Positions 29,879 through 49,585 of a DNA stretch of 64,000 nucleotides are shown one piece after another; the stretch's first letter is position 1; every line of letters begins with the position of its first letter. Source of the DNA: an uncultured Chloroflexia bacterium (GTDB lineage Bacteria > Chloroflexota > Anaerolineae > CG2-30-64-16). The translations under genes and the position numbers were made by a program. The stretch lies in the NCBI GenBank assembly GCA_963810095.1, contig CAWEMM010000011.1, positions 256,001-320,000 on the forward strand. The letters are read 5' to 3'. Under the pieces are notes generated by a model that was not told the DNA's origin, searched no databases, and was given only the letters and a program-made list of their open reading frames with translations.

Positions 29879-29882
29879 TCTC

Positions 29883-29950
29883 AACACAAAGACACAAAGC
29901 CACAAAGCCTTGAGAGGTGTGGTGTGGTTGTGTCTTTGTGCCTTTGTGTT
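29883..29950. repeat. ACACRAAG-unit palindrome (family copy 3)
   Basis: AACACAAAGACACAAAGCCACAAAG...GTTGTGTCTTTGTGCCTTTGTGTT. Confidence 0.75.
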
Positions 29951-29971
29951 ATCGTACCTTTTGGAGGCAAC

Positions 29972-30262
29972 ATGGCAGAAGCATTGGGCATGATCGAGAC
30001 CAAGGGTTTCGCGGCGATGGTCGAAGCATCAGACGCGATGGTGAAGGCCGCCAAGGTCGAACTGATCGGCTACGAGAAGATTGGCGGCGGGTATGTGACC
30101 GCGATCGTGCGCGGCGACGTCGCCGCGGTCAAAGCAGCGCTCGAAGCGGGCGCGCGCGGCGCGGAGAAGGTGGGGGAGGTCGTCTCCGTCCACGTCATCC
30201 CGCGGCCCCACGAGAACGTCGACCGGGCCCTGCCGCTCGGGCGCCAGCAGTCGAAGGAATAA
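29972..30262 (+). CDS. BMC-H hexameric shell protein (EutM/PduA-like)
   Basis: [39 protein letters not shown]; GGAGG SD. Confidence 0.95.
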
Positions 30263-30265
30263 CCT

Positions 30266-31548: not shown

Positions 31549-31602
31549 ATTGGCATCGCTCCGCTCAGGATGCCCCTCTTCAAGACGGATACGAGGCGTC
31601 GC

Positions 31603-31911
31603 ATGCTCATCGGTAAAGTCGTCGGAACGGTGGTTGCCAGCCGCAAGGAAGAGAAGCTGGAAGGCGTCAAGCTGCTCGTCCTTAAGCAGGTCAGCGTGGA
31701 GGGACAGGTCGGGGCGGCCTACGTGGTCGCGGTCGACGCCGTGGGCGCGGGGCTCGACGAGTACGTGCTGTATGCCAGCGGCTCGTCGGCGCGGCAGACC
31801 CTCGTAACCGATAAACGCCCGGTCGACGCGGTGGTCATGGCGATCATCGACCAGTGGGAAGTCGGCGGCGAGGTCAAGTACCGGAAGGTCGAAGGCGAGT
31901 ACCAGTCCTAA
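31603..31911 (+). CDS. BMC-P pentameric vertex protein (EutN/CcmL family)
   Basis: [40 protein letters not shown]. Confidence 0.95.
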
Positions 31912-31962
31912 GTCACGCGTGGACGACGCAGGTTCCGGTCCATCTATGGGATCCATCAGTCT

Positions 31963-33501
31963 ATGGGCGAAAAACTAACAGACGCGCAGATCGAAGCGAT
32001 CGCTCGCCGGGTGCGCGGTCAATTAGGCGGTGGGCCGCTGCGACACGGCCAGGACTCCGGACGTGAGGACCGTGCGCGGACAGCCGCCGCGCCATCCGCG
32101 CCCGCGGGTGGGCCGCCCCCGCACCTCTCGTATGTGGGACGGGCCGGGCGGAGCGTGCCCGCGCCTGCCGTCACGGGCAAGGACGGTATCTACCCGGACC
32201 TTGATTCCGCAGTCGCCGCAGCACGGCGCGGCTTCCGCAGCCTCGACGAACTCACGCTGGAGAAACGCGTCACGATCGTGGCGGCCATGCGCGAGGCGAT
32301 GCGCCGCAATGCTGAATTGCTCGCGACCATGGCGCAGGAAGAGACCGGGCTGGGGCGGGCCGAGGACAAGGTCAAGAAGAACCTCCTCGTGATCGACAAG
32401 ACACCCGGGCCAGAAATCCTACAGCCGTCCGCGTGGACCGGGGATCGCGGGCTAACGCTGGTCGAGCGTGCGCCGTACGGCGTGTTCGGCGTGATTACCC
32501 CGAGCACCAACCCGACTTCCACGATCATCAACAACGCCATTGGCCTGGTCTCCGCCGGCAATGCCGGCGTCTTCAACGTCCACCCCGGCGCAAAGCGCGT
32601 CTCTGCGTACCAGATCCAGTTGCTGAATCGGGCCATCGTGTCGGCAGGGGGTCCGCCCGACGTGCTCACTGCACTGGCCGAGCCGACCGTGGAAAGCGCC
32701 CAGGCGTTGATGAAGCACCCGGGCGTCCGCATCCTCCTCATTACGGGTGGGGGCGCGGTGGTCAAGTTGGCCATGGCCTCGGGCAAGCGCGCCATCTGCG
32801 CCGGCCCGGGCAACCCGCCCGTCGTCGTCGACGAAACCGCCGACATCGACCTGGCGGGCCGAGAGATCGTCTTCGGCGGCAGCTTCGACAACAACATCAT
32901 TTGCGTGGACGAGAAAGAAGTCTTCGCCGTTGCGAGCGTGGCCGACAAGCTCAAGGCCGCGATGGTGGCAAACGGCGCGGTGGAATTGCCCTCGTACCGG
33001 CTCAAGGCGCTCGAGAAAGTCATTTTCGAAAAGCTGCCCGGCCCGCGCGAGCACGGCGTGATGAAGAAGGAATGGATCGGCCAGAATGCGGGAAAGATCC
33101 TGGCGGAGCTGGGCATCTCGGCGCCGAACGCCAGGCTTGTGCTGGTCGAGACGCCGGCCGATCACCCGCTGATCTGGACCGAGCAGCTGATGCCGGTGAT
33201 GCCGCTGGCGCGCGTGCGCAACGTGGACGAGGCCATTGACCTGGCGATCGAGGCGGAGCATGGCTTCGGCCACACGGCCAGCATGTTCAGCCGCAACATC
33301 GACGCGCTCAGCCGGATGGCCCGGGAGATCAACACGAGCATCTTCGTGAAGAACGGGCCAAACCTGGCCGGGTTGGGTTACGGCGGCGAGGGCTTTACCA
33401 GCTTCTCCATCGCCAGCCCTACCGGCGAGGGGCTGACCAACGCGCTGACGTTCACGCGCATTCGCCGTTGTACGATGGTCGACCACTTTCGAATTGTTTA
33501 G
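31963..33501 (+). CDS. CoA-acylating aldehyde dehydrogenase (EutE/PduP family) with encapsulation peptide
   Basis: EETGLGR, PSTNPTST, TGGGAVV, AGPGNPP, FDNNIIC, EQLMP and PTGEGLT; N-terminal DAQIEAIARRVRGQL helix then Pro-rich linker. Confidence 0.95.
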   Translation: MGEKLTDAQIEAIARRVRGQLGGGPLRHGQDSGREDRARTAAAPSAPAGGPPPHLSYVGRAGRSVPAPAVTGKDGIYPDLDSAVAAARRGFRSLDELTLEKRVTIVAAMREAMRRNAELLATMAQEETGLGRAEDKVKKNLLVIDKTPGPEILQPSAWTGDRGLTLVERAPYGVFGVITPSTNPTSTIINNAIGLVSAGNAGVFNVHPGAKRVSAYQIQLLNRAIVSAGGPPDVLTALAEPTVESAQALMKHPGVRILLITGGGAVVKLAMASGKRAICAGPGNPPVVVDETADIDLAGREIVFGGSFDNNIICVDEKEVFAVASVADKLKAAMVANGAVELPSYRLKALEKVIFEKLPGPREHGVMKKEWIGQNAGKILAELGISAPNARLVLVETPADHPLIWTEQLMPVMPLARVRNVDEAIDLAIEAEHGFGHTASMFSRNIDALSRMAREINTSIFVKNGPNLAGLGYGGEGFTSFSIASPTGEGLTNALTFTRIRRCTMVDHFRIV

Positions 33502-33559
33502 TTTGTGCGCATCGCGGGCACGCTGTGCGTGCCGTGATGCGCACAAAAAGTAAGGGACT

Positions 33560-34256
33560 ATGCAGCCAGCCCTCGCCCTCATCGAATTCGACTCTATCGC
33601 GGCAGGCGTACAGGCCGGCGACGCTATGGCCAAGAAGGCCCCGGTCGCGCGCGTCGCCGCGGGCACCGTCCACAACGGCAAGTACCTGGTGCTGGTGGCG
33701 GGCGAGGTCGCCGACGTCGAGGAGTCGTACGCCGAAGGGCTGGCACGTGGGCGCTAGCAGCATCCTCGACAGCGTTTTCCTTCCTGGCGTGCACCCCCAG
33801 GTCGCCTCTGCAGTCGGACGACAGCGCCTCCCCGAGCCTGTGGACAGCCTGGGCATCGTCGAGACACGCACGGTCGCGGCGGCTATCGCTGCAGCCGACG
33901 CCGGGCTCAAAGGTGCCGAAGTCAACCTGATCGAGGTGCGCCTCGCGGATGGGCTGGGCGGCAAAGGGCTCGTCTTTTTCTCCGGCCTGGTGCACGATGT
34001 CGAAGCCGCGGTCCACATCGGCGTCGAGTGCATTTCGTCAACCTCGGCGCTGATCCAGGCGGTCGTCATCCCCCAACTTCACCCCGACATGGCGGCGAAC
34101 ATCCTGGCCGACACCCGCTGGCAGCGCCAACATCTAGGCTCGCCGCGCCGTTGTTATGTCCTGTTGGGGGCGGGCTCGCCCCCAACACCCCCGCTTCGGT
34201 GGCTGCGCCCCCGAAACCCCCAAAGGCTACGCTCCCAGCACTGCTTACGCCCCTAG
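33560..34256 (+). CDS. PduT-like BMC-T shell protein (frameshift near 33745; reading frame runs into a repeat, so the 3' end is uncertain)
   Basis: ALALIEFDSIAAG..DAMAKKA..GKYLVLVAGEVADVE; second domain LGIVET..AADAGLK..RLADGLGGK. Confidence 0.88.
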
Positions 34257-34669: not shown

Positions 34670-35449
34670 ATGACCCAAACCCAACCCAACCCCACTCTCG
34701 ATCTGATGCACCGCCACGGCTCGGTACGCCGCTACCGGCCCGACCCGGTTTCCTCCGACATGGTTACGGAGATCGTCCGTGCCGCTCAACGGGCGTCCAC
34801 ATCGTCCAACCTGCAAATGTGGACGGTGATTGCGGTCACCGGCGCCGAAAAACGGGGCCGGCTGGCGGAGTTGTGCGGTAATCAGTCGCACATCCTCGAC
34901 GCACCTGTCTTCCTCGCCTGGTGTGCCGACCTGGCACGCCTGGACCGGGCATGCGAGTTACGTGGCTACACGCAAGTCACGGAGTACGTCGAGAACTTCC
35001 TGGTGGCCGCGACCGACGCGGTGATTGCGTCGCAGCAGGCGGCGCTCGCGGCCGAGTCGTTCGGGCTGGGCATCTGTTACATCGGAGGCCTGCGCAACTG
35101 CCCCGCCGAGGTCATCGAACTGCTCGAGATGCCACGGCTGACCTTCCCGGTGGCCGGTATGACGCTCGGCTGGCCCGCGGCCCACCCACCCATCCGCCCC
35201 CGGCTCGATACAGAGGCGGTGCTCCACTGGGAGCGTTACGACACGCGCGAACAAGACCGGTTGCTGGCCGCGTACGACCGTGCCATGATCGACACGGGCA
35301 TTTACCAGGGGCGACAGGTCGCGACGCCCGGCCAAAGCGGCGAGATGCAGGACTACGGCTGGCTGGAACACTCGGCCCGCCGGGTGTCTCAACCCTCGCG
35401 CACGGGGCTGCGCGAGGAATTGGCGAAACAGGGTTTTCTGTTAGAGTAG
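34670..35449 (+). CDS. NADPH-dependent flavin oxidoreductase (NfsA/Frp nitroreductase family)
   Basis: HGSVRRY, ASTSSNLQ, CADLAR, GICYIGGLRN and RPRL; TGcTACAAT at 34631-34639. Confidence 0.92.
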   Translation: MTQTQPNPTLDLMHRHGSVRRYRPDPVSSDMVTEIVRAAQRASTSSNLQMWTVIAVTGAEKRGRLAELCGNQSHILDAPVFLAWCADLARLDRACELRGYTQVTEYVENFLVAATDAVIASQQAALAAESFGLGICYIGGLRNCPAEVIELLEMPRLTFPVAGMTLGWPAAHPPIRPRLDTEAVLHWERYDTREQDRLLAAYDRAMIDTGIYQGRQVATPGQSGEMQDYGWLEHSARRVSQPSRTGLREELAKQGFLLE

Positions 35450-35496: not shown

Positions 35497-36690
35497 GTGG
35501 CGATGCAGGCAGACGACGTTGTCATCCTAAGTGCGGCACGGACGCCAATCGGCAAATTTCAGGGTGCGCTCGCCGAAACCCCGGCGACGAAACTGGGAGC
35601 CATCGCAATACGGGCTGCTTGCGAGCGGTCGGGCGTGGATCCGAGTTTGATCACCGAAGTGTTCATGGGCAACGTGGTTCAGGCGGGCGAAGGCCAGGCC
35701 CCTGCTCGTCAGGCGGCCATCGGCGCGGGCATCCCCCCGACCACCGGCGCGACAACCATCAACAAGGTGTGCGGGTCGGGCCTGCGCGCCGTCATGTTCG
35801 CCGCATCTGCGATACGGGCGGGCGAAGGCGACTTCTTCGTCGCCGGCGGCATGGAGAACATGAACAGTGCGCCCTACCTGCTGCCCAACGCGCGCTTCGG
35901 CTACCGGCTGGGCAACGGAGAGCTGGTCGACGCAGTCGTCCACGATGGCCTGCTCGATCCTTATGACAACAAGCACATGGGCGAGTTTGCAGAGTGGACC
36001 GCGGAAACCTTCGGCATCAGCCGGCAGGATCAGGACGAGCTTGCCCTGCGCAGCCACCGGCGGGCGGTTGCAGCGCAGGACGAAGGCCGCTTCAAGGCTG
36101 AAATCGCACCGGTGCCCCTGCCCCAGCGCCGCGGCGATCCCATCCCCTACGACACCGACGAAGGACCCCGCCGCAACACGTCCGCGGAACTGCTCGCGGG
36201 TCTGAAGCCCGTCTTCCGTGCGGGCGGCACCGTCACGGCGGGCAACGCGCCGGGCATTACCGACGGCGCGGCTGCGCTAGTCGTGGCGCGGCGCGCGGCG
36301 GCTGATGCCGCAGGGCTTAAGCCCATGGCCAGGATCGTTGGCTATGCGCAAGGACAACTCAAGCCGAGCGAAGTATTTATCGCGCCCGTCAAGGCCATCG
36401 GGCGGCTCTGCGAACGGCTCGGCCGCGAGCCCGGCGACTTCGATCTCTACGAGCTCAACGAGGCTTTCGCGGCGCAAGCAGCGCACAACATCCGTGAACT
36501 GGGACTGGACCCAGAGCGGGTCAACGTGAACGGCGGAGCCATCGCGCTCGGTCACCCCATCGGGGCCAGCGGCGCGCGGGTCCTGACCACGCTTCTGTAC
36601 GCTCTGGCGAGCCGCGGGCTGCACACGGGACTCGCGTCGCTGTGCCTGGGCGGCGGCGAGGCGGTCGCGCTTGCGGTGGAAATGGAGTAA
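35497..36690 (+). CDS. Acetyl-CoA C-acyltransferase (thiolase)
   Basis: INKVCGSG, GGMENM, NEAFAAQ, NGGAIALGHPIGASG and LCLGGG. Confidence 0.95.
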   Translation: MAMQADDVVILSAARTPIGKFQGALAETPATKLGAIAIRAACERSGVDPSLITEVFMGNVVQAGEGQAPARQAAIGAGIPPTTGATTINKVCGSGLRAVMFAASAIRAGEGDFFVAGGMENMNSAPYLLPNARFGYRLGNGELVDAVVHDGLLDPYDNKHMGEFAEWTAETFGISRQDQDELALRSHRRAVAAQDEGRFKAEIAPVPLPQRRGDPIPYDTDEGPRRNTSAELLAGLKPVFRAGGTVTAGNAPGITDGAAALVVARRAAADAAGLKPMARIVGYAQGQLKPSEVFIAPVKAIGRLCERLGREPGDFDLYELNEAFAAQAAHNIRELGLDPERVNVNGGAIALGHPIGASGARVLTTLLYALASRGLHTGLASLCLGGGEAVALAVEME

Positions 36691-39600
36691 TGATCGAACA
36701 CTTGCACCAGGGTGGGCTGCTGCGGGCAAAGCTAAGCCCGCCACAGCCATACCGCCGCACGCTCGCGCGACCACGCGTGCTGGCGTGCCTGACACAGGCG
36801 CTGGAGCACCGTCTGACGGTGGTTCATGCCGGCGCAGGGTACGGCAAGACCACCGCGCTGGCTTCACTGTGGCGTGAGTTGGGCGGCGGGGCCACGAAAC
36901 CGGTCGCTCCAGACCTTGCAACGGCCGCCGGCGGCCCCCACGAGATTGAGCCGGCCTGGCTGACCCTGGACAGCACGGATCGCGAGCCGAGGCAGTTCCT
37001 CGCCTACCTCAGCGCCGCATGCAATGCTGAAGCCGAGTCCTTGGCGCTCGAATGGGAAGGCGGCGCCGGGGCCGACTGGCGCAGGCAGATCGACCGGCTG
37101 TTGAATGCGCTCACGGTGCCCGAACGCGATGCCCGGCTGCTGATCCTCGACGATTTTCACCTCCTGGCGGGCGAGCCAGACGTGCTCGCGATGATGGAAC
37201 GGCTGCTCGCCTACCTCCCCGCAAACCTGCACGTGATCCTTGCGACGCGGCAGCCGGTTCCATTCGAATCCATCGCCGCCTGGCGTGCTCGAGGCGAAGT
37301 GCTCGAGGTCGGGAGCCGGGACCTCGCGTTCACCAGGGACGAGGTGCAGGCGCTCTTCGAGGAGAGCTACGGCGCGGGACTAGACCCGGACGACGCCGCG
37401 ACGCTGACCGAGTTAACCGAAGGCTGGCCGATTGCGTTGCAACTGGCCTGGCAAAGCCTGCGGAGCGGGCTGGGCCCCGGGCAGGTCCGCCTGGAGCCGA
37501 GCCGCGACATTCGCCGGCTGATCGAGCAGGGCAGCGGCCCCTCACACGTCCTTTTCGAGTACCTTGCGCACGAATTGCTCGACCGCCAGCCGCCGAGCGT
37601 CGTCAACTTTCTGCTCGACACCTCGGTCCTGCGCGATCTGACCCCGGGCGCGTGCGCCGCCGTGCGTGAGGACGAGGCGGCGGGAGACCTGCTGATCCGC
37701 GTCCACGAGCTGGACCTGTTCACGGTGTCCCTCGGCGACGGTCACTACCGCTATCACCACCTTTTCCACGACTTCCTCCGCGCGGGCAGCGGCCGACCCT
37801 TCGGGCGTCTGTGTGCGTCACGCCCGCGCCGCCGGTCACTTCGCCAGCGTGGGGCAGGCCGAAGAGGCAGTCTATCACTGGCTGCAAGCGGACGAGTTCC
37901 GGTCGGCGGCCGGGGCGATCGAATCTGCGGCCCCGGCCCTGCTGACGGCCGGCCGGCTTGATGTGGTCGCCGGATGGATCGACGCACTCCCGCCGTCTCT
38001 TCTGGCCGAGAGTCCGGCACTGCAGGCCCTGCTCGGAGACATCTGCCGGCTGCAGAGCCGGTTCGACCAGGCCCTTGGCTGGTACGCGGAGGCCGAGCGC
38101 ATCTATCAGAGCCGCGGCGATCGAGCCGGGATGAGCCGGGCCCTGCACGGGCAGGCGTCCGTCTACCTCGACACGGTCCGCCCCGCCCAAGCCGAGGGGC
38201 TGCTGCAGGAAGCGCTCCGGCTGAGCGAAGGCATTGCCGATCGCGAATCTCAGGCCCGCTTGCTCGACCTGCTGGCCGAGAACAAGCTGAATGTGGGCAA
38301 GCCGGGCGAAGCCGAGGCCCTGCGGGCAGAAGCTCAGAACCTGCGCGAGGAGGGGCCGACCGCAGATGCCTTGAGCGTGCGCGTGAAGCTGCGGACGGGC
38401 CAACTGGCGCAGGCGCGCGCGATGCTGGAGGCGCGCGTCGACGCCGAACGCCGCGCCGCGGAGGGCGGACAAATGGGACCGCCGCGCGCCCACCGGGAGA
38501 CGCGTCCTGATCTTGTCGCTGATCGCTGCGTTACAGGGAAGCGCCGAAACTGCGCTGACGCTTGCGCAGGAAGGCATCCAGCTTGGCGAGCGCCTGAACT
38601 CGCCCTTTGTGACCGCCGTGGGCCAGATGCGGCTCGGGCATGCGCTGCAGATCCAGGCCCACCAGGCCGCTGCCCGAGGCTGGGAAGGCGTCCTACCCGG
38701 TGGAACCGGCCCAAGCCCCGCAGCCAGCCGCGACGAAGCCATCCGGGGATACCGGGCCGCGATCGCGCTGGGCGATGCATTGGACGTGCGCCGGACACGC
38801 GCGGAGGCCATGTGGGGACTCACCCGAGCGTTCGGTTACTTCGGCGGCGCGGGCGAAGGCGGCGGCGACATTAAGGCCGCAGAGGACGCGGCGCGCGAAG
38901 GGCTGGAAATCGCACATTGGGCCGGCGACTTGTGGGTGGGCGCTCTGACCGAAATGACCCTTGGCGCCAGCTATGTCCTGGTAGACCAGCCCCACGAGGG
39001 CCTGCTCGCGCTGAGCCGGGCCACAGCCGCGTTCCGCGACTGCGGCGACACCTTCGGCCGCGCCGCCGCGCGACTTTGGGAGGCCCTGGCCCACGCCGCG
39101 CTCAAGCATCAGGAAGCCGCGCTGGGCGCGCTGCACGAAGCGCTGGGCCTGTGTGCCGTCAACGGGTACGACTATCTGTTGACCGCCCCGACCCTGCTCG
39201 GGCCGCCGGATGCCCGTCGCCTCGTGCCGCTCCTGCTAAAGGCTCGCACGCATCGCCTGCACACGGCATACGTGGGGCGCCTGCTGGCGCTGCTGGATAT
39301 CCCTGCCGTTCAGGCGCATGCCGGTTACCGTCTCCACGTCCAAACGCTTGGGGCGTTCCGGGTCTGGCGCGGCGCGGCCGAGGTGGCGCCGCGCGATTGG
39401 CAGCGCGACAAGGCGCGGCAGTTGTTCCAACTGTTCGTCACGGAGCGCGGACGGTGGCTGAATCGGGACGAAGTGGTCGAGCGCCTGTGGCCGAGCCTCG
39501 GGCCGGAAGCGGCCGTGCGCGACTTCAAGGTGGCGCTCAACGCGCTGAACCGGGCCGTCGAGCCGGGCCATGCGCCCGACGAACCGTTCGCGTTCGTCGC

Positions 39601-40108
39601 ACGCGAAGGCGCGGCATACCGCCTGCGCCCCGACGCAGATTTGTGGCTCGACCTCGCGGATTTTGAGCGCCGCTGCGAGGCCGGCCTGCGCGGGCCGCTG
39701 GGCGGGCCGGAGGCAGAGGCCACGCTGGAGCACCTGCGAGCGGGACTGCGCCTCTACCAGGGCGACTACCTGCCGGACGCGCTCTACGAAGATTGGGCGA
39801 CCGAGACGCGCGAGCGAATGCTCACGCTCTACCTGCGGGCGGCCGACCGGCTGGCCACCGCCCTGCTCGAACGCGGCCAGCACGAAGAAGCCCTGGACGT
39901 CTGCGGCGCAATCCTGGCGCGCGATGCTTGCTGGGAGCGCGCGTACCGCATCGAAATGCAGGCGTGCGCGCTGCTGGGCAATCGACCGCAGGCGCTGAAA
40001 TCTTATCAGCGCTGCCGCACCGTCCTCGCGGCCCAACTCGACGTCCCTCCTTCCCCAGAAACGGTCTCCCTCGCCGCCGCGCTCGGTCTGCACGGAGGCC
40101 GGCTGTAA
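36690..40108 (+). CDS. Large transcriptional activator: MalT-like ATPase + TPR + C-terminal winged-helix/BTAD (frameshifts near 37790 and 38505)
   Basis: AGAGYGKTT, LILDDFH, TEGWP and YRYHHLF; QTLGAFRV..WQRDKAR..ERLWP, LYQGDYL and WERAYR. Confidence 0.88.
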
Positions 40109-40173: not shown

Positions 40174-40428
40174 ATGCCCGACGACTCTCTGCCAACACCT
40201 GCCGAACCCAACCTCGACTCTTTCGTCTTGCGCTTCGTGTCCAACCGTGAAGGCCCTTCAGTTCGAGCAGGCGCCGAAAGCGGGTCCGACGACGGCTGCG
40301 GCGCAGTTGGATGGCACGGCGTCATCCGCCACGTGCAGACGAATCGTGAGCGGGCTTTCAGCCGTTGGACAGATGCCGTCGCATTTATCTCCGAATTCGT
40401 GCACGTGGGAGAGAACAAGGATGAGTGA
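40174..40428 (+). CDS. Small hypothetical protein
   Basis: DSFVLRF..WHGVIRHVQT..RAFSRW..AVAFI; stop overlaps the next start. Confidence 0.7.
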   Translation: MPDDSLPTPAEPNLDSFVLRFVSNREGPSVRAGAESGSDDGCGAVGWHGVIRHVQTNRERAFSRWTDAVAFISEFVHVGENKDE

Positions 40429-41467
40429 GTCCAGCGCCGGGATCGTCAGCGTAGGCATGTATGTGCCGGAGCCCGTGATGACGGCGGCCGACATCGCCGC
40501 GGCCAGTGGGATCGAAGAGTGGGTGGTGCGCGAGAAGTTCGGCATCACGCAGAAGCACGTGCCCGGCCCCGACGACCACACCAATGCGATGGCCGTGCGG
40601 GCCGCGCTCGACTGCCTCGCACACGCGGACATAAAGCCCGAGGACATCGACGTCGTCCTGTGCACGACGGAAGAGTGGAAAGAGTACCTGCTTTGGACCG
40701 CCGGCATCAAGCTGGCGTACGAAATCGGCGCAACGCGGGCGTGGGCCATCGACGTACAGATGCGCTGTGGGACGACCATCGCCGCCATGAAGATGGCGAA
40801 GGACATGATGCTGGCCGACGAGGAGATCCGGACTGTGCTCATCGCCGGAGGCTACCGCAACGGGGACCTCATCAATTACCGAAACCACCGCACGTCGTTC
40901 ATGTTCAACCTTGCAGCCGGCGCCGGCGCGATGCTGCTGCAGCGAGGGTATCCCCGCAACCGGGTCTTGGGCAGCCACCTGATGACCGACGGCTACATGA
41001 GCGAGCACGTTGTCGTGCCCGCCAGCGGTACCAAGCGCTTTCCCACCGATGCGGCCGTGGCAGAGGGCCTGTTTTACCTGGACCTCGTCGAGCCGGAAGC
41101 CATGAAGAGCCGGCTGAACGCGGTTTCGATGGACAACTGGATGCACTGCGTGGACGAGGCGCTGCGCAAGTCTGGGTCCAAGCCCGACGGCGCGGGCGGA
41201 ACCCGCTCCTACACCCGGGCCGACATCGGCTACCTCAACGTCCTGCACATGAAGCCATCGGCGCACAAGGACATGCTCCAGCGACTGGGGCTGACCGAAG
41301 AACAGTCCGTCTACCTTTCAGACTACGGCCACATCGGGCAGCAGGATGCCATGGTTTCGATCGTCGAGGGTCTGCGGCAGGGCCGGCTCAAGGACGGCGA
41401 CCTGATGGTCATCGTCGCAGCCGGCATTGGCTACACCTGGGGCGCGGGGTGCGTGCAGTGGGGGTAG
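40421..41467 (+). CDS. 3-oxoacyl-ACP synthase III-like protein (non-canonical Cys-His-His)
   Basis: FabH fold motifs; MRCGTT, VLHMK, YGHIGQ and AAGIGYTWG. Confidence 0.88.
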   Translation: MSESSAGIVSVGMYVPEPVMTAADIAAASGIEEWVVREKFGITQKHVPGPDDHTNAMAVRAALDCLAHADIKPEDIDVVLCTTEEWKEYLLWTAGIKLAYEIGATRAWAIDVQMRCGTTIAAMKMAKDMMLADEEIRTVLIAGGYRNGDLINYRNHRTSFMFNLAAGAGAMLLQRGYPRNRVLGSHLMTDGYMSEHVVVPASGTKRFPTDAAVAEGLFYLDLVEPEAMKSRLNAVSMDNWMHCVDEALRKSGSKPDGAGGTRSYTRADIGYLNVLHMKPSAHKDMLQRLGLTEEQSVYLSDYGHIGQQDAMVSIVEGLRQGRLKDGDLMVIVAAGIGYTWGAGCVQWG

Positions 41468-41563
41468 AATAGCCCGGAGATCCAGCTGATTGAACTGATC
41501 TCGGCGATCTATTTTGGAAAGGATCATGGGGATCAGTCTGGTCAGTCAAATCAGCGTCCCATT
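41468..41563. repeat. CTGAT/ATCAG palindrome family (copy 2)
   Basis: GATCCAGCTGATTGAACTGATC...GATCAGTCTGGTCAGTCAAATCAGCG. Confidence 0.65.
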
Positions 41564-41575
41564 AAGGAGTGTCTT

Positions 41576-42379
41576 ATGCCGACGATTTGCGTGAACGACA
41601 TCGACCTCTACTATGAGCTTTACGGCGACGGCGAGCCGCTCGTGCTCATCTCGGGGCTCGGGTATGGGCTTTGGCAGTGGCACAAGATGATCCCCTTCCT
41701 GGCCGGGCGGCGGCAGGTCATCGCCTTCGATAACCGCGGCGCAGGGCAAACGGCGAAGCCCGCTGGCCCCTACACCGCACCCATGCTCGCCGAGGACACG
41801 GCCCGCCTGATCGAGGAAGTGGTCGGTGGGCCGGCGGCAGTCATGGGCCACTCGATGGGCGGCTTCATCGCCCAGCAGCTTGCGCTGGCCCGGCCCGACC
41901 TGGTCAGCAAGCTCATCCTGGCCTCGACCAACTTCGGCGGCCCCAATGCCGCGCCGGTAACGCCCGAGGCCCTGGCCGCCATGCTGGATCGTTCGGGCGA
42001 CCCGGCCGACGTCGTGCGCCGGGGGGTCGGCATCGCCACCGCGCCCGGTTTTATCGACGCGCATCCTGACGTTCTCGCCGAGCTGATGAACTACCGGTTC
42101 ACGAACCCCGTGCCGCCCGAGGCCTACCAGGCCCAGATGGCGATCGGACTCGGACTGCTTTCGCCCGCGGCCGCTTTCGAGGGGAAGCTCGGCGCGGTCC
42201 GGGTTCCCACGCTCATCCTGTTCGGCGCGCACGACAACGTCGTGCCGCCCGCCAATGCCCGTCTGCTTGCCGCTCAGCTGCCGCAAAGCAAAATCGTGAT
42301 CCTGCCCGGCGCAGGCCACATGTTCCCGATTGAAGCGCCGGAAGAGGCTGCGCAGTCCGTATTGGAGTTCCTGGGATGA
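41576..42379 (+). CDS. Alpha/beta hydrolase
   Basis: FDNRGAG, GHSMGG, GAHD and AGH; TAAGGAG SD. Confidence 0.92.
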   Translation: MPTICVNDIDLYYELYGDGEPLVLISGLGYGLWQWHKMIPFLAGRRQVIAFDNRGAGQTAKPAGPYTAPMLAEDTARLIEEVVGGPAAVMGHSMGGFIAQQLALARPDLVSKLILASTNFGGPNAAPVTPEALAAMLDRSGDPADVVRRGVGIATAPGFIDAHPDVLAELMNYRFTNPVPPEAYQAQMAIGLGLLSPAAAFEGKLGAVRVPTLILFGAHDNVVPPANARLLAAQLPQSKIVILPGAGHMFPIEAPEEAAQSVLEFLG

Positions 42380-43432
42380 CGGGCAACGAAGCCGCACGCC
42401 ACCAACCAGCACGCTATGCCCAGATCCTCGCGACCGGCCGCTACGTGCCCGAACGGGTGATGACCAACGCGGAGTTTGAGCCGCTGGTGGGTAAGCCCGT
42501 CGACCAGTGGCTCGTCGAGAAGGTCGGCATCCGCGAGCGACATGTCATGGCGGACGACCAGGCAACGTCGGATCTCATCGTGCCCGCCTGCCGGCAAGCA
42601 TTGGAACGCGCGGGGCTCGAGCCGGCGGACGTGGACCTGATCGTCGTCGCGACCGACACGCCCGACTACATCAGCCCGGCCACAGCTTCGGTGGTGCAGG
42701 CGAAGCTCGGGGCGGACCAGGCGGGGACCTACGACGTCAATTGCGCATGTGCGGCGTGGGTGACAGGGCTGGACGCGGCTGCGCGCATGATCGCGACGGA
42801 CCCGGACGTGAACCGGGTGTTGGTTGCGGGTGCGTACGGCATGACCAAGTTCCTGGATTGGCACGACATCTACACGGCAACCCTGTTTGCCGACGGCGCG
42901 GGCGCGGTGGTGCTTGGGGCCGGCGCCGAGCCGGGTTTCGTCGCCGGCAAACTCGTCGGCGCAGGCGACTATCACGACGCGCTCGGCATCTACTCCGGGC
43001 GGCACCTACCGCCCCGTCACCGACGCCAGCATGGCCGAACACGGACGGCCGCGGGTGCAGTTCGTCAAGAAGTTCCCGGCGACGTTCAACAGCGAGAACT
43101 GGCCGCAGTTGGTCAATGACGTCTGCCGCAAGGCCGGGTGGACGGTGGACGAGGTCGATTTCTTCCTGTTCACCCAGCTGAACCTGAGGACGATCGAGGA
43201 CGTGATGCAGCGGCTCGGCCAGCCCATGAGCAAGACCCACTGGATCATGGACAAGTGGGGGTACACCGGCTCCGCCTGCATCCCGATGGCCCTGGACGAC
43301 GCGGTGGAGCAGGGCAAGCTAAGCCCGGGCATGAAGGTGGTTTTCTGCGCCACGGGCGGCGGCATGGCCATGGCCTGTGATGCGTGGGTGTGGACGAGCG
43401 AGCTGGCATGGCACCCTGATCCAACTGATTGA
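42376..43432 (+). CDS. 3-oxoacyl-ACP synthase III-like protein lacking the canonical His and Asn (frameshift near 42995)
   Basis: GIRERH, ATDTPD, DVNCACAA, LFADGAGA, FTQLN and WGYTGSA. Confidence 0.88.
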
Positions 43433-43500
43433 ACTGGTGTTCCTGATGCACCGTGGAAGAATCAGGTAAATCAGTCCGATCTGTTCAATCTGCGTGCTAT
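43408..43500. repeat. CTGAT/ATCAG palindrome family (copy 3), overlapping the KAS III stop
   Basis: ATGGCACCCTGATCCAACTGATTGAACTGG...ATCAGTCCGATCTGTTCAATCTGCGTGCTAT. Confidence 0.7.
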
Positions 43501-43521
43501 TTCCTCCCCGGAGGGCGTGAT

Positions 43522-45066
43522 ATGTACATCGGGGACTATCTCGGGCGGCGAGAGATTTACAGCCCGGAAAAGATCGCCATTATCGACGCGGGCAAGCCCG
43601 GCGAGCCGCAGTATACCTATCGCCAGATGAACGAGCGCGCGAATCGCCTCGCGAATTACCTGCGCGACGAGGTCGGCGTCGGCAAGGGTGACCGGGTGGG
43701 CATCTTTGCCCGCGATGGCATCGAGCACCTGGACCTCTTCTTCGCCCTGTCGAAACTCGGTGCGATTCACGTCGCGTTCAACTGGCGCCTCCACCCCCAG
43801 GAGCTATGCCGCCTCGCCGAGCTGACGACGCCCAAGGCCCTCGTCTTCTCCGACGACTTCCGCCCCACGATCGCGCAGCTCCAAGCCAACCCTGCCTCGG
43901 GCACGATCACGCGCTACCTGCACATTGACGGGGAGGGCATCCCCGGGAGCAGCTTATTTGCAGAGGCGCGCGACGCTTCGTCCGGCAGTCCCGTCACTTG
44001 CGAAACCCTTGAGGCCGAGAATATCGCCGCGCTGCTCTTCACCGGGGGCACAACCGGGCTGCCGAAGGGCGCGGAGATCAGCCACCGCCAGATCGCCTGG
44101 AACACGCTCAACACAGTGATTCACGACGTGACGCACAACGACGTGTACCTAAACGTCTTCCCCATGTTTCATACCGGCGGCTTGTTTGTGTACACGCTGC
44201 CGCAGGTCATCTTCGGCGGCACGACCATCCTCACCCGCCAGTTTGATCCGGGGCAGGTGCTCGACTTGATCGGGCGGTACAGGGTGACCGTGTTTGGCGG
44301 CGTGCCGACGATGTACCAGATGATGACGCAGGCGCCCAACTGGGAAACGGCCGATTTATCCAGCCTCCGGTTTTGCACTTCGGGAGGCGCACCACTGCCG
44401 GTGCCGTTGGTTCAGAAGTACACTGCCGAGAAAAGCATTCGCTTCAAGCAGGGCTTCGGGATGACCGAGTTTGGACCGGGCATTTTCGCACTGGCGCCGG
44501 AGGATGCTTTGCGAAAGGCCGGTTCGATCGGCCGGCCGAACTTCTACGTAGATGCTCGCATCGTGGACGAAGACAACCGTGCCTTGCCTCCCTTGCAGGT
44601 CGGCGAGCTGGTGCTAAAGGGACCGAGTTACTGCTCAGGCTATTGGGCGAACCCGGACGCCACTGCGGGAGCGGTAGACACGGAGGGCTGGTTCCACACG
44701 GGTGACGCGGCCTATTGCGACGAGGAGTGGTACTTCTTCATCGTCGACCGAATCAAGGACATGTTCATCTCGGGCGGTGAGAATGTGTACCCGGCCGAGA
44801 TCGAAGCGGTGCTTTACCGGCACCCGGCCGTCCACATGTGCGCGGTCGTCGGCGTGCCCGACCCTAAGTGGGGGGAAGTCGGCGTCGCGTGCGTTATCGG
44901 GAAGCCGGGGGCAACTGCCAGCGCAGAGGACCTGCTGAGCTTCCTGTCCGAGAACCTCGCCCGGTACAAGGTGCCCAGGCGGGTAGAGTTTGTCCAGGCG
45001 CTGCCTATTTCGGCGGCCGGCAAGATCCTCAAGCGTGAACTGAGAGAACAGCTGCTGCATTCGTAG
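43522..45066 (+). CDS. Acyl-CoA synthetase (AMP-forming) 1
   Basis: FTGGTTGLPKG, GFGMTE, HTGD, SGGENVYPAE and AAGKILK. Confidence 0.93.
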   Translation: MYIGDYLGRREIYSPEKIAIIDAGKPGEPQYTYRQMNERANRLANYLRDEVGVGKGDRVGIFARDGIEHLDLFFALSKLGAIHVAFNWRLHPQELCRLAELTTPKALVFSDDFRPTIAQLQANPASGTITRYLHIDGEGIPGSSLFAEARDASSGSPVTCETLEAENIAALLFTGGTTGLPKGAEISHRQIAWNTLNTVIHDVTHNDVYLNVFPMFHTGGLFVYTLPQVIFGGTTILTRQFDPGQVLDLIGRYRVTVFGGVPTMYQMMTQAPNWETADLSSLRFCTSGGAPLPVPLVQKYTAEKSIRFKQGFGMTEFGPGIFALAPEDALRKAGSIGRPNFYVDARIVDEDNRALPPLQVGELVLKGPSYCSGYWANPDATAGAVDTEGWFHTGDAAYCDEEWYFFIVDRIKDMFISGGENVYPAEIEAVLYRHPAVHMCAVVGVPDPKWGEVGVACVIGKPGATASAEDLLSFLSENLARYKVPRRVEFVQALPISAAGKILKRELREQLLHS

Positions 45067-45097
45067 CCCATACTCCGAGAGACAAAGGAGCGTTGAC

Positions 45098-46162
45098 ATG
45101 AATGATGACATCCCAACCTTGCTCGGCATCACATCCACCTTCGTCGACACGCCGCGGCTGCGCACGCACGTCCTCTCGTGTGGCCCGACGAGCGGCGTTC
45201 CGATCGTCTTCATCCACGGCAACTTCTCCGCCGCGACTTACTGGGAAGAGCTGATGCTGGCCCTGGCCGAGCGCGGCTTCCGCTGCGTCGCGCCCGACCT
45301 GCGCGGCTACGGCTGGAGCGAAGATAAGCTGATCGACGCAACGCGCGGTTATCGCGACTGGAGCGACGACCTGCACGCACTCGTGACCGCGCTGGCCCTG
45401 CCCCCCTTCCATCTTGTTGGTTGGTCTGCGGGAGGCGGGGTTGTGTATCGCTACCTGGCGGATCACCCCGCCAACCTGCTCAGCGTCACGCTCCAGGCCC
45501 CGGTCAGCCCGTACGGCTTTGGCGGCTCGAAGGGGCTCGATGGAACGCCCTGCTACGCCGACTTCGCCGGCTCGGGTGGGGGCGTGGTCAACCCGGTCTT
45601 CGTCCAGCGCATCCAGATGGGCGACCGCACGGCCGACGACCCGAATTCGCCCCGCAACGTAATCGCCGCGTTCTATTACGCGCCGGGTTTCGTCTCCGAG
45701 CGGATGGAGGACTACCTGACCGCCGCGCTCCAGGAAAAGACAGGGCCCGAGCGCTACCCGGGCGACTTCGTACCGTCGCCCAACTGGCCCAACGTGGCGC
45801 CCGGTGTGCTGGGGCCGGTCAACTGCTGGTCGCCCAAATACCTGGCCGAAGATGCACCCGACGTCCTGGCCGCGGAGCCCAAGCCGCCGGTCCTGTGGAT
45901 CCACGGCGACAAGGACCTGATCGTGGGCGACATGTCGATGTTCGATTTCGGCGCGCTGGGCAAGTTGGGCTACGTTCCCGGCTGGCCCGGCGACGAAGTG
46001 TACCCGCCACAGCCGATGGTCGGCCAGACGCGCGCTTTCCTCGAGCGTTATGCGGCGGCGGGCGGACACTTTCAGGAAGTCGTGATCGAGAACACCGGTC
46101 ACTCGCCCCACATCGAGAACCCGCAGGAATGGCTGAATGCGTTCCTGGAGATGGTGGGATAG
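45098..46162 (+). CDS. Alpha/beta hydrolase (esterase/depolymerase-like)
   Basis: IHGN oxyanion motif, DLRGYG, GWSAGG nucleophile elbow, GDKD and GHSPH. Confidence 0.9.
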   Translation: MNDDIPTLLGITSTFVDTPRLRTHVLSCGPTSGVPIVFIHGNFSAATYWEELMLALAERGFRCVAPDLRGYGWSEDKLIDATRGYRDWSDDLHALVTALALPPFHLVGWSAGGGVVYRYLADHPANLLSVTLQAPVSPYGFGGSKGLDGTPCYADFAGSGGGVVNPVFVQRIQMGDRTADDPNSPRNVIAAFYYAPGFVSERMEDYLTAALQEKTGPERYPGDFVPSPNWPNVAPGVLGPVNCWSPKYLAEDAPDVLAAEPKPPVLWIHGDKDLIVGDMSMFDFGALGKLGYVPGWPGDEVYPPQPMVGQTRAFLERYAAAGGHFQEVVIENTGHSPHIENPQEWLNAFLEMVG

Positions 46163-46215
46163 GCGGGGCCAACAGGTCCACCGCACCGCCCGTAACCGTG
46201 AATTGGAGTGGAGTG

Positions 46216-47274
46216 ATGCAGCGAGAACCGAAGATGACGTTGAGCCAGATAGAAGCAATGCGTTCTGGGGCCCGCACCGCCGTTCGCACGTGCATGGGCG
46301 TGGGTCCGGCCGACCGGGTGTTTGTGCTGACCGATCGTGTCACGAACACGATCGGCCGGTTGTTGAGCGAAGAAGCGGACGAGGCCGGTGCGCAGGCAGT
46401 CATATACGACCTGGAGCACTTTGGCCCGCGGCCCATGACCGAGTTTCCCGACAACCTGCGCCGCGAACTATTGAACTACCGGCCGACGGTCACGTTCTAC
46501 GCTGCGGCAAGCCAGCCGGGCGAACTGCCGTTCCGCATGGCGCTCCGGGTGTTCCTCGTGCAGGACCTGAAGGTGCGGCACGGACACATGCCCGGGGTGA
46601 CGCCCCAGCTGATGGTGGAAGGTATGCGCGCGGACTATAAGGTTGTCGCCGCGCTGACCCGCGCCGTGTATGACCTGGGCCGGGAGACACGCACCATCCA
46701 CGTCACGACGCCGGATGGCACCGACCTGACCGCGCTGATCAGCCCCCGCCTGCGATGGGTGCCGTCGACCGGCATCTACCACGAACAGGGCCAGTGGGGC
46801 AACCTGCCCGAGGGCGAGACGTTCACCTGCCCTGAAACGCTCGACGGACGGCTCGTCGCCCATATCCTCGGAGATTACTTTAGCGAGAAGTACGGCGTCC
46901 TGGAGCACCCGGTGATCTTCCACCTGGCAGACGGCCGCGTCACGGCGATCGAGAGCCAGAATCGCGACGTCGCCATCGAGGTCACTGAGTACCTGGACTC
47001 TTCTGAGAACGGCCGCCGGGCTGGCGAATTTGCCATTGGCACCAACGTCGGGCTGAAGAAGCTCATTGGCAACCTGCTGCAAGACGAGAAGCTGCCTGGC
47101 ATTCACGTCGCGTTCGGCAATCCCTACCCCCACGAGACGGGGGCTGACTGGACGTCCAACGTCCACGTCGACGTGATCCCGATCAACTGCACCATCACGA
47201 TGGACGGCCAGACGGTGATGCAGGATGGCCGTTTCGACTACGAACTGCTGGGGGTCTCACCCAGCGGACGCTGA
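46216..47274 (+). CDS. Aminopeptidase, M29/aminopeptidase T-like
   Basis: GHMPG, NLPEGETF, GEFAIGTN, QDEK..GIHVAFG and HVD. Confidence 0.85.
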   Translation: MQREPKMTLSQIEAMRSGARTAVRTCMGVGPADRVFVLTDRVTNTIGRLLSEEADEAGAQAVIYDLEHFGPRPMTEFPDNLRRELLNYRPTVTFYAAASQPGELPFRMALRVFLVQDLKVRHGHMPGVTPQLMVEGMRADYKVVAALTRAVYDLGRETRTIHVTTPDGTDLTALISPRLRWVPSTGIYHEQGQWGNLPEGETFTCPETLDGRLVAHILGDYFSEKYGVLEHPVIFHLADGRVTAIESQNRDVAIEVTEYLDSSENGRRAGEFAIGTNVGLKKLIGNLLQDEKLPGIHVAFGNPYPHETGADWTSNVHVDVIPINCTITMDGQTVMQDGRFDYELLGVSPSGR

Positions 47275-47305
47275 CGCGCACGCGGAACCGCAAGGAATGT
47301 GAGCC

Positions 47306-48857
47306 ATGTTCATCGGCGACTGGCTCGGCCGGCGAGCCAACCTGACACCGGACAAGGTCGCACTCATCGACGCTACGGGCGCCGCCGAGCGCAGCATCAC
47401 GTATGCAGAGTGGCACCGCCAGGCCTTGCGCACGCAGCACTTCCTGGTTGACGAGCTGGGCGTGACCAAGGGCGACCGGGTGGCAGTGCTTGCCGCAAAC
47501 AGCGTCGAGTATCTGGATGTATGGTTTGCCCTGGGCAAGCAGGGGGCCATCCTCCAGAATCTCAACTGGCGGCTGGCCGTGCCCGAGCTCGAGCGCGTCT
47601 TGCTGGATGCGGAGCCGGTCGGCACTGATCTACTCGTCTGAGTTCGGCGGACAGGTGGACGAGCTGCGGGGCCGAGTGCCCTCGATTCGTCACTGGATTG
47701 CGTTCGACCGGCCCAACCGCGATGACATGCTCTTCGGCCGCCGCGAGCTGCACCCCGACACGCCGCTCCCAGACGTAGAGCTCGCCTGGGACGATCCGTG
47801 GGTGCTGTGCTACACGGGCGGCACGACCGGATTACCCAAGGGCGCCGTGCTCACCCACGGCAGCATGGCCGCCAATTCGATCAACACCGTCATGAGCTGG
47901 GGCGTGACCCCAGACGACGTCGTACCGCTGATTAGCCCGCTCTTCCATACGGGTGGACTCAACGTCTTCACCCTGCCCCTCGTCCACATCGGCGGTACGA
48001 CGGTCGTCACCCGGGGGTGGAACACGGACCAGATGTACGACCTGGTCGCGCGCCGCGCAATCACGCTTTTCTTCGCCGTGCCGACCATGTTCGTCATGCT
48101 CCAATCGGACCCGCGCTGGGAGAGCACGGACTTCACCTACCTGAAATACGTCATCAACGGCGGTGCACCCTGCCCACTGCCCATCTTCGAGAAGTGGTGG
48201 GCGAAGGGCGTGCCGTTCAAGACGGGGTACGGCTTGACGGAGGCGGGGCCGAATACGTTCTGGCTCCCCGAAGCGGACGTGAAGCGAAAGCCCGGTTCGG
48301 TCGGCCACCCGCTGTTCCACGTCGACGTGCAGGTTGTCGACCCCGACTCCGAGCGGCCGTGCAGCCCGGGGGAGGTCGGCGAGCTGCTGATCAGGGGCCC
48401 GCACGTCTGCCGCGGCTACTGGCGCAACCCCGAGGCGACCGCGGCGGCGTTCCGCCCCGCGAAGGGCGACCCCGATGGGCCAACATGGCTGCACACGGGC
48501 GACCTGGCGCGCTGCGACGAGGAGGGTTTCTACTACATTGTCGGGCGCTGCAAAGATATGATTATCTCGGGCGGTGAGAACATCTACCCTGCCGAGGTGG
48601 AGAGCGCCATGCACGCGCACCCGGCGGTCGCGTCAGCTGCCCTCATCGGCGTGCCCGACGAGAAGTGGGGGGAGGTCGGCAAGGCGTTCGTCGAGCTCAG
48701 GCCGGGCGCAAAGCTCGAGGAGGCCGAGCTGCTCGACTTCCTGCGCGGCCGGCTCGCGCGCTACAAGGTGCCAAAGTCGGTCGTCTTTGTTGCCGCGATG
48801 CCCGTGACGGCCGCCGGCAAAATCGATAAGCAGGAACTGGCCCGCTCGTTCGCCTGA
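47306..48857 (+). CDS. Acyl-CoA synthetase (AMP-forming) 2 (frameshift near 47620)
   Basis: YTGGTTGLPKG, GYGLTE, HTGD and SGGENIYPAE. Confidence 0.92.
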
Positions 48858-48860
48858 GCC

Positions 48861-49548
48861 ATGCAGATGGAAGCACTGGAAGCCATTGCCACCCGCCACG
48901 GCGTGCTGCGTTACCGGCCCGACCCGGTTGAGCCGGACAAGATCCAGGCGGTGCTGGAGGCTGCGATCGCGGCCCCCAGCCCGGCCAACCTGCAGCCTTG
49001 GGCCTTCGTGGTCGTTACAGACCCCGGGGCGTGCAGACCAATTGCGCGCTACCTGGTCGACGTGCAGGAGCAGCGGGTGTTCCGCGAAATGCTGGGGATG
49101 CCAGCCGGCTCCACCGAACGGCTCATGGGCTTGTACGAGTCGTTCGACCGTGCGCCGTGCTTCATCCTGCTGTGCCTCGAGCAGAAGGCGTCGTTCGCCC
49201 GGCCCGAGCACGAGGGCGTGCTGCGGCAGTGGCACCTGGTGAGCCTGGGCGCGGCCATGCAGAGCCTGATGATCGCCGCAACCGCGCTCAGGATTGGGCA
49301 CGCGCTGGTTTGGCGGTTTCGCGCTGGACGACGGCGGCGGGCCCTTGAAGGAGATGCTTGGCATCCCTCCGGCGGTCGAGATAGTGGCCGCCACGCCGCT
49401 GGGTTACCACGACGAGCCACCCAAGCCCAGACCCGGGCAGGCCCGGGAGGATATCGCCGGGTTCGCCCGGGGCGACAGCCGGGCCCTGGGCCGCTTGCTG
49501 AGGGGCAAGCTGCCGCTGGCCGAGGTCGTCCATTACGGGAAGTGGTGA
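48861..49548 (+). CDS. Nitroreductase family protein (frameshift near 49290)
   Basis: APSPANLQPW, LMIAATA/GTRW and PLGY. Confidence 0.85.
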
Positions 49549-49585
49549 AGTGACCAGCCGGCGCCCGGCTGGGGGTAGGTCTTTG

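Follow-up and report, generated by a model that had tools for sequence, protein, structure and literature searches.

Two KAS III homologs with conserved non-FabH residues, found beside hydrolase and acyl-CoA synthetase genes in an uncultured Chloroflexota bacterium

The two KAS III homologs and their active sites

We analysed a 64-kb stretch of an uncultured Chloroflexota genome (contig CAWEMM010000011.1 of assembly GCA_963810095.1; hereafter the window, in whose positions the coordinates are given) that encodes two homologs of KAS III (β-ketoacyl-ACP synthase III; ACP, acyl carrier protein), which we call KAS1 and KAS2. KAS1 (40421..41467, plus strand) is a protein of 348 residues with matches to the Pfam domains ACP_syn_III and ACP_syn_III_C and to the NCBIfam model NF005308 (PRK06840); the residues of interest are Cys116, His276, His304 and Asp309. 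KAS2 lies in two frames of the same strand: its N-terminal part (42376..43002, frame 1; ACP_syn_III, 73.3 bits) contains the Cys of the motif NCACAA, and its C-terminal part (43004..43432, frame 2; ACP_syn_III_C, 91.5 bits) contains the Thr of FTQLN, the Tyr of WGYTGSA and a further Cys at +5. The two parts meet at a +1 frameshift site visible in the DNA sequence (ggg c ggc, 43000..43006, plus strand), which is a probable assembly indel. The source genome, an assembly of 16 contigs that is 88.5% complete, is designated G000; other G-labels denote the genomes compared and L-labels the loci. Close homologs carry names that assign the organism to Anaerolineae/Chloroflexota.

A first-pass annotation, made from the sequence of the window, had described KAS1 as having the Cys and His of FabH with a second His at the site of the FabH Asn, and KAS2 as keeping the Cys but having Thr for His (FTQLN) and Tyr for Asn (WGYTGSA). 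HMMER alignments confirmed both descriptions, and that of KAS1 was also confirmed by a multiple alignment, A1, from which two references were left out on account of stop codons in L011. KAS1 'ylsdyGHigq' was placed over FabH 'vhkyGNtsa' (solved FabHs 8vd9, 2ebd and 1zow), and the His of KAS1 'NVLHMK' fell in the same A1 column as the KAS2 Thr, i.e., that of the FabH His of 'PHQAN'. KAS2 'fflfTQlNlr' was placed over 'lfvpHQaNlr' and 'mdkwGYTgsacip' over 'vdryGNTstasip' (solved structures 1ub7, 8vd9, 1zow and 4ryb); the Cys of 'NCACAA' is in the FabH Cys column, and both KAS1 and KAS2 retain this Cys. What the annotation had overlooked is that the KAS1 His-for-Asn substitution, taken together with an Asp at +5, matches the known triad of DpsC, CerJ and ChlB3.

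The annotation had also held that neither gene is a fatty acid initiation enzyme, and our searches bore this out: neither KAS1 nor KAS2 is the starter enzyme of this genome's fatty acid synthesis. A separate canonical fabH, with the Cys, PHQAN and GNTS motifs, is encoded elsewhere in the genome (G000:C6:1667134-1668109), both proteins score under the fabH cut-off, and there is no space for an ACP gene between 40421 and 49553. For KAS1 the scores were 116.6 bits with TIGR00747 (cut-off 292.1) and 128.6 with NF006829 (cut-off 249), and for the two parts of KAS2 they were 173.7 and 50.9 bits with TIGR00747. An intact ortholog of KAS2 (L028) was likewise under TIGR00747 (212.7 versus 292.1), yet over the cut-off of the broad subfamily model NF006829 (252.7 versus 249), and intact members of the KAS2 clade straddle this broad 'KAS 3' cut-off of 249 (252.7 and 249.0, 198.5 for L053 and 179.5 for L013).

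The frameshift in KAS2 consists of one extra base near 43003 ('tcc ggg c ggc acc', 42997-43009), where the orthologs in L028 and L030 (86–89% identical) read GIYSGGTYRPVT in one unbroken frame. As the annotation had stated, the substituted residues lie away from it, the break being ~85 codons past the Cys and at least 55 before the Thr. One could nevertheless propose that KAS2 is a decaying pseudogene that has lost its frame as well as its His and Asn, given that the frame is broken at 43003 and that the reads did not resolve it. We find this scarcely credible: all six orthologs of KAS2 (L028, L029, L030, L031, L032 and L033; 60–89% identity) are intact in one frame each, the Thr/Tyr/Cys pattern is kept across phyla down to ~42% identity, and the essential genes fabH, rpoB and rpoC of the same assembly are broken in a like manner. 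The canonical fabH of G000 is split over two frames, and in the region G000:C14:146935-155374 rpoB has its C-terminal end in a different frame, while rpoC is divided into pieces over three frames with five or more switches, one of the pieces containing four in-frame TGA codons. Within the window, a regulator gene (36642-40108) is broken near 37790 and 38500, its frames 3, 1 and 2 being matched by single open reading frames (ORFs) in L036 and L120 (1077 and 1114 residues, respectively), and the ligase gene AMP2 is in two frames with a break near 47620, its relatives having single ORFs. Because six of six orthologs are intact and fabH, rpoB, rpoC, the regulator and AMP2 are also split, the KAS2 break is probably an assembly indel, and frameshifts anywhere in this genome are likely artefacts that should not be taken as biology. 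A contig of one relative, from another strain, has 76 letters for the 77 bases 42993-43069 and fits the form that is one base shorter.

Two families and their conserved residues

KAS1 is a member of NF005308 (PRK06840), for which the cut-off is 315 bits: it scores 458.4, or 458.8 when the whole genome is scanned; its relatives in L017 and L051 also pass (430.9 and 409.5 bits), and no member was found in 14 control genomes. KAS1 and its relatives thus belong to a family whose label, '3-oxoacyl-ACP synthase', is a name only, and a full-text search of the literature for 'PRK06840' gave no paper. PRK06839 (a ligase), PRK06840 and PRK06841 (a short-chain dehydrogenase/reductase, SDR) bear consecutive numbers, as may happen for genes that are neighbors in a reference Firmicute. 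We aligned KAS1 with 131 relatives, namely 120 close homologs and 11 Chloroflexota loci of 35–60% identity (alignment A3). His304 and Asp309, spaced as His-x4-Asp, are present in 131/131, and the FabH-type His276 in 127/131; this last His is dispensable in the family, Leu replacing it in the other four. Ser occupies the nucleophile site in L122 (8051-9043), L124 (8014-9009) and L017 (5619-6620), where the gapped region around the Cys was re-registered by eye. On this alignment, the invariants of the KAS1 family are Cys (or Ser), His304 and Asp309.

Similar triads, of the acyltransferase type, are given in excerpts of published work for DpsC (S118-H297-D302), OxaC (S113-H292-D297) and ChlB3 (C113-H296-D301) (PMC12664062, PMC12308425, PMC9573744). 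In HMMER alignments, His304 and Asp309 of KAS1 align with chain indices 317 and 322 of 4xs7 and 300 and 305 of 5wgc, which correspond to DpsC H297 and D302 assuming 20 and 3 extra N-terminal residues in the respective constructs. By alignment KAS1 has the DpsC-like residues (C116, H304 and D309). As DpsC and CerJ are more distant from it than FabH and BioZ are, both in overall sequence and in predicted fold (mean predicted local distance difference test score, pLDDT, 80.7), we read KAS1 as DpsC-like in its working and not necessarily as a member of the DpsC clade.

KAS2 and its relatives have a different set of residues. In alignment A2 (11 sequences) the invariants are C115, T256-Q257, H278, W284-G285-Y286, S289 and C291, and the residue pattern of KAS2 is shared by a sister group at ~45% identity that includes L012 and L013. 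A scan of one genome per species identified 80 loci, of which we took the 20 best (42–64% identity, including two isolates): Cys, Thr and Tyr were together in 20/20 and the Cys at +5 in 18/20, whereas FabH controls in the same scan had PHQAN and GNTS in 6/6. With these counts, and with His304 and Asp309 in every one of the KAS1 relatives, the altered residues of the two proteins are not due to chance. The 20 loci come from Myxococcota, Pseudomonadota, Chloroflexota, Acidobacteriota, Bdellovibrionota, Gemmatimonadota, Bacteroidota and Elusimicrobiota, and Caldisericia and Spirochaetia records are among cluster members; the clade is present in at least nine phyla. The best 150 of 24,458 profile matches in a library clustered at 50% identity comprised 26 with Thr and Tyr, 97 with His and Asn, and 27 fragments or mixed cases. 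Scores of the KAS2-type profile were bimodal in 401 Chloroflexota genomes, with 16 reaching at least 343 bits and the best of the others at 272. The N-terminal part of the window KAS2 alone scored 342.9 bits against the A2 profile, for which FabHs score 272 or less, and all four clade residues are present in KAS2.

In a quick tree of 85 hand-picked rows (midpoint root, supported by the Shimodaira–Hasegawa-like approximate likelihood ratio test only), three groups were each set apart by one branch: the 39 rows with Thr/Tyr, those with His/Asn, and the KAS1 family, with support of 98, 98 and 100, respectively. Phyla are intermixed inside the Thr/Tyr clade, which suggests that it has spread horizontally. 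The predicted model of KAS2 (pLDDT 80.2) matches FabH folds at template modelling (TM) scores of 0.80–0.87, the stretch around the frameshift being a low-confidence loop. His278 (of KTHW) was considered as a relocated catalytic His and rejected; invariant in A2, it gives way to V, T, P, E or Y in several of the representatives with Thr/Tyr.

There is no curated family for the Thr/Tyr clade, public records call its members 'ketoacyl-ACP synthase III', and a protein atlas query returned generic 'synthase III' clusters only. No paper describing a Cys-Thr-Tyr KAS III was found in the literature searched, among which the main review of KAS III homologs was not included; the clade and the gene cassette around it appear to be undescribed. 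Two cultured isolates carry a Cys/Thr/Tyr member. In Phaeodactylibacter luteus KCTC 42180 (L044) it is flanked by a TonB-dependent receptor gene on one side and a CoA ligase gene on the other, and a dethiobiotin-synthase-like (AAA_26) gene comes next; in Aquisalimonas lutea CECT 8326 (L045) its neighbors have no Pfam match. The KAS2-type gene of L011 (L011:2318-3233, genome G004) switches frame between its N- and C-terminal parts, in a fragmented assembly, and was excluded from further comparisons.

Two interleaved modules and their surroundings

From KAS1 to a nitroreductase gene, the plus strand carries a tightly spaced run of genes (40421-49553) with intergenic gaps of 0–216 bases, a spacing that suggests one operon. 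Directly 5' of KAS2 is ABH1 (41576..42379, plus strand), a serine α/β hydrolase with a GHSMG motif (Pfam Abhydrolase_1, 119 bits) that among solved structures is best matched by the esterases Est1 6eb3 and 8v16 (E-value 4e-40), and 3' of KAS2 is AMPlig (43453..45066, plus strand), an acyl-CoA synthetase (NF004837, 474.9 bits versus a cut-off of 476) whose best solved relatives are the fatty-acyl/feruloyl-CoA synthetase 8weu/8wev (375 bits) and FadD13. These are the partners of KAS2, which adjoins AMPlig in 6/6 orthologous loci (L028-L033); the order ABH1-KAS2-AMPlig is kept where the locus extends, with a whole ABH1 in 4/6 and a partial match in 2/6. The partners of KAS1 are ABH2 (45098..46162, plus strand), a serine α/β hydrolase with a GWSAG motif (Pfam Abhydrolase_1), and AMP2 (47291..48857, plus strand, split near 47620), a second acyl-CoA synthetase (Pfam AMP-binding). 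A ligase adjoins KAS1 in 10/11 loci and orthologs of ABH2 (46–56% identical) occur in 7/11, while in L116, L120 and L123 orthologs of AMP2, 57–62% identical to AMP2 and 43–48% to AMPlig, are directly beside KAS1. These conserved neighbors mark out two interleaved modules of three genes each in the window, one made up of KAS1, ABH2 and AMP2 and the other, ABH1-KAS2-AMPlig, set inside the first.

The distribution of the two families bears on a further proposal of the annotation, namely that KAS1 and KAS2 may form a heterodimer or an acyl relay; we weighed the heterodimer as one like PqsBC, with complementary altered sites. PqsB is a subunit without catalytic residues, and PqsC lacks the Asn. Several observations are in line with such a pairing: a single gene separates the two in the window, the order regulator-KAS1-hydrolase-KAS2 is found again in G065, which is of another class (there, a CoA-transferase takes over from the ligase), L011, L012, L013, L051 and G016:C119 are loci with both KAS1 and a KAS2-type gene, the families are neighbors wherever both occur, and PqsC is among the structural neighbors of KAS1. 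However, each protein, unlike PqsB, has its own nucleophile and conserved site, each has its own ligase and hydrolase, and among the 401 Chloroflexota genomes NF005308 is over its cut-off in 28, the KAS2-type profile in 16, and both in only two (G000 and G065), i.e., in 2 of the 42 genomes with either family. In the 41 nearest genomes, which are kin and not independent, both occur in eight, KAS1 only in two and the KAS2-type gene only in six. Orthologs of KAS2 are found without KAS1 in G019, G039, G035 and G033 (96–100% complete) and in G008 (65%), and KAS1 is found without a KAS2-type gene in G037 (one contig, 98% complete) and G007. With the families occurring independently in this way, obligate heterodimer formation is ruled out as a family trait, so that the annotation's proposal is not supported in that form and any PqsBC-like pairing is improbable; where both are present, the two proteins may act at consecutive steps of a pathway. 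At the G065 locus (L114), the run KAS1-hydrolase-KAS2-CoA-transferase-binding-protein-ABH2 is followed by genes for a biotin carboxylase and a biotin carrier (L114:14141-16134), and a protein with an ethylbenzene-dehydrogenase-like domain is encoded upstream; each was seen at this one locus.

The remaining genes of the run are those of an M29-like peptidase-family protein (46183..47274, plus strand; Pfam Peptidase_M29, 52.8 bits), which also adjoins KAS1 in L016, and of the nitroreductase-family protein that is the last of the tightly spaced genes (48861..49553, plus strand; Pfam Nitroreductase, 70 bits). Upstream of KAS1 is a regulator of the AAA-TPR-BTAD type (36642..40108, plus strand, in three frames in the assembly; Pfam AAA_22, TPR_12 and BTAD), similar to the Streptomyces antibiotic regulatory protein (SARP)/AfsR group, and 5' of it a canonical thiolase (35497..36690, plus strand; Pfam Thiolase_N, 314.5 bits, and Thiolase_C, 136.3 bits). 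Just beyond the operon are genes for a nitroreductase (34670-35449) and an AMP-binding ligase (50176-51693), the second and third of their kind, respectively, and the region around it is unusually rich in acid-activating enzymes. What looks like a bacterial microcompartment locus is found further upstream (27856-34253), where a BMC-domain shell protein is encoded together with a DeoC-family aldolase and an aldehyde dehydrogenase.

We compared the context of 19 KAS2-type loci with flanks and 11 KAS1 loci. Near the KAS2-type genes there was a CoA-forming enzyme (AMP-binding or CoA-transferase) in 17/19, an α/β hydrolase in 12/19 (two by tblastn only), a FabG-like SDR, often directly upstream, in 9/19, and a TonB-type outer-membrane receptor or barrel in 7/19, all of these last in Acidobacteriota or Bacteroidota; L053 is a compact receptor-SDR-KAS-hydrolase-ligase-TetR operon. 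TetR/SARP regulators, MaoC hydratases, an SCPx-type thiolase with DUF35, and transporters of the MFS, SSF and binding-protein kinds are also found near these genes. KAS1 loci have parts of a Liv-type ATP-binding cassette (ABC) importer in 8/11 (in the window, Liv-type transporter genes are at 54994-58403), MaoC in 4/11 and an SDR in 3/11. There was no ACP, polyketide synthase (PKS) or nonribosomal peptide synthetase (NRPS) among the neighbor ORFs scanned. L047 and L052 seemed to have hydrolase-ligase fusions, but these were set aside as an ORF-calling artefact, since no hydrolase match was obtained for the N-terminal extensions.

This context can be set against two biosynthetic explanations. 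The locus could be a small SARP-controlled biosynthetic cluster in which two acids, loaded by the two ligases, are joined or esterified by the KAS III-like enzymes before a hydrolase frees the product, much as in the PqsA/PqsD/PqsE/PqsBC system. SARP/BTAD regulators adjoin the genes in seven Chloroflexota loci, the tight gene spacing suggests a single operon, and the known DpsC/CerJ-type KAS III enzymes, as far as excerpts of PMC12308425 and PMC12664062 describe them, are all from natural-product pathways. Against this, the scanned neighbor ORFs include no typical exporter, just as they lack ACP, PKS and NRPS, and instead contain the TonB-type (7/19) and Liv-type (8/11) importers, TetR, MaoC, FabG-like SDRs, CoA-transferases and thiolase with DUF35; moreover, each module is also found alone. 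We therefore consider a biosynthetic cluster rather unlikely.

Alternatively, the KAS2 operon might be Ole-like, making β-lactones or olefins by head-to-head condensation with counterparts to OleA (thiolase), OleB (hydrolase), OleC (an ANL-superfamily adenylating enzyme) and OleD (reductase). The same four folds (KAS III-like, α/β hydrolase, AMP-binding and SDR) do occur together, and OleA structures are among the weak sequence and structure matches. Yet AMPlig is nearest to the true CoA ligases named above, with no OleC in the best 60 solved matches, and the SDR is FabG-like (about 260–285 bits to FabG models) and not of the 3β-hydroxysteroid dehydrogenase type to which OleD belongs. In addition, KAS2 lacks the His and Asn that OleA keeps, and several loci have a CoA-transferase for the ligase, which is incompatible with a lactone synthetase step. 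An Ole-like pathway is very improbable on these grounds.

Proposed chemistry and comparison with known systems

Our preferred reading, to which we give a probability of roughly 60%, is that KAS1 and KAS2 serve separate modules and perform non-decarboxylating chemistry through an acyl-Cys. Each would act, in what are likely nutrient-uptake loci, on CoA thioesters supplied by its own neighboring ligase, neither as a FabH nor as half of an obligate heterodimer. The pathway of such loci would proceed from import through ester or lactone hydrolysis and CoA activation to an oxidation or hydration resembling β-oxidation, and then to a Cys-dependent step on the CoA thioester; whether their role is catabolic we hold to be an evenly balanced question. 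For KAS1, the His-Asp triad points to acyl transfer: Cys116, with His304-Asp309 to activate it on the model of DpsC, CerJ and ChlB3, would receive the acyl group from CoA and hand it on to an acceptor. In KAS2 the acyl group would be bound to Cys115 in an intermediate, and the hydroxyls of Thr and Tyr would donate hydrogen bonds in place of His and Asn. Because both decarboxylation residues have been lost to hydroxyls, a second Cys is conserved and a FabG-like enzyme adjoins, the likeliest step for KAS2 would be a thiolase-like cleavage or formation of β-ketoacyl-CoA beside the FabG-like reductase; as a specific claim, such C–C chemistry is possible but doubtful. Speculatively, and with doubt at least as great, the Cys/Thr/Tyr(/Cys) proteins may be a new class of the thiolase superfamily, in which the KAS III scaffold would work as a CoA-dependent, non-decarboxylating C–C enzyme, cleaving β-ketoacyl-CoA as thiolases do or making it by a Claisen reaction, at the core of a widespread, horizontally spread SDR-KAS-hydrolase-ligase cassette that imports and degrades esters or hydroxy/keto acids in at least nine phyla, with PRK06840 as its DpsC-like counterpart.

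Several points weigh against this reading. The mapping of KAS1 to DpsC depends on a weak alignment (E-value 0.039) and on assumed tag lengths; DpsC, CerJ and ChlB3 are far below FabH as sequence matches to KAS1 (E-values of about 1e-6 versus 6e-27) and are not among its structural neighbors listed to rank 49. With FabHs closer than these three enzymes, the likeness of the KAS1 triad may be convergent. The predicted models of both KAS1 and KAS2 resemble FabH most (TM 0.79–0.87), and we know of no precedent for a thiolase-like role of the KAS III fold. KAS1 and a KAS2-type gene are a few genes apart in at least seven loci, including that of G065 in another class, and may have a functional link or form a facultative complex. 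SARP-type regulators, which elsewhere point to secondary metabolism, flank the Chloroflexota loci (the window, L036, L038, L049, L114, L115 and L120). Lastly, the reads did not settle position 43003: among low-depth contigs from 14 runs the best word share was 0.44, and none bridges the site with sufficient letters to its left and right.

To our knowledge, KAS III homologs without malonyl-condensing activity have so far come only from a few natural-product pathways. The families described here would add two more conserved active-site designs, a DpsC-like Cys/Ser-His-Asp in a curated but unstudied family and a Cys-Thr-Tyr for which we found no described counterpart, both of them in catabolic-looking loci of many uncultured phyla. 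With the public label 'ketoacyl-ACP synthase III', metabolic reconstructions will miscount the KAS2 family as FabH. The two cultured carriers, P. luteus KCTC 42180 and A. lutea CECT 8326, open the chemistry to direct study.

Among known systems, FabH shares with KAS1 and KAS2 its fold, its length and the place of its nucleophilic Cys, and it is the best match of both by sequence and structure; however, the His-Asn pair is gone (Thr/Tyr in KAS2, His at the Asn site with Asp at +5 in KAS1), and the window operon contains no ACP or fab genes. The likeness of KAS2 to thiolases is one of inferred function, comprising predicted CoA-thioester substrates, a reaction without decarboxylation, a second conserved Cys and β-oxidation-type neighbors, although KAS2 is not a member of Thiolase_N/C (22 bits, under the cut-off) and has its second Cys elsewhere. 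PqsBC, with PqsA, PqsD and PqsE, follows the same logic of a ligase, KAS III-like proteins and a hydrolase, but here the Cys is present in both proteins, each family also occurs without the other, and the hydrolases are serine enzymes of the α/β fold. DpsC, CerJ, ChlB3 and OxaC resemble KAS1 in having a His at the site of the FabH Asn and an Asp five residues on (GHIGQQD in KAS1); they differ in that KAS1 loci are without the type II PKS, sugar-tailoring and ACP context, and in that KAS1 usually also keeps the FabH-type His. The nucleophile itself, a Cys in most PRK06840 members and a Ser in some, parallels the division between CerJ and ChlB3, which have Cys, and DpsC and OxaC, which have Ser.

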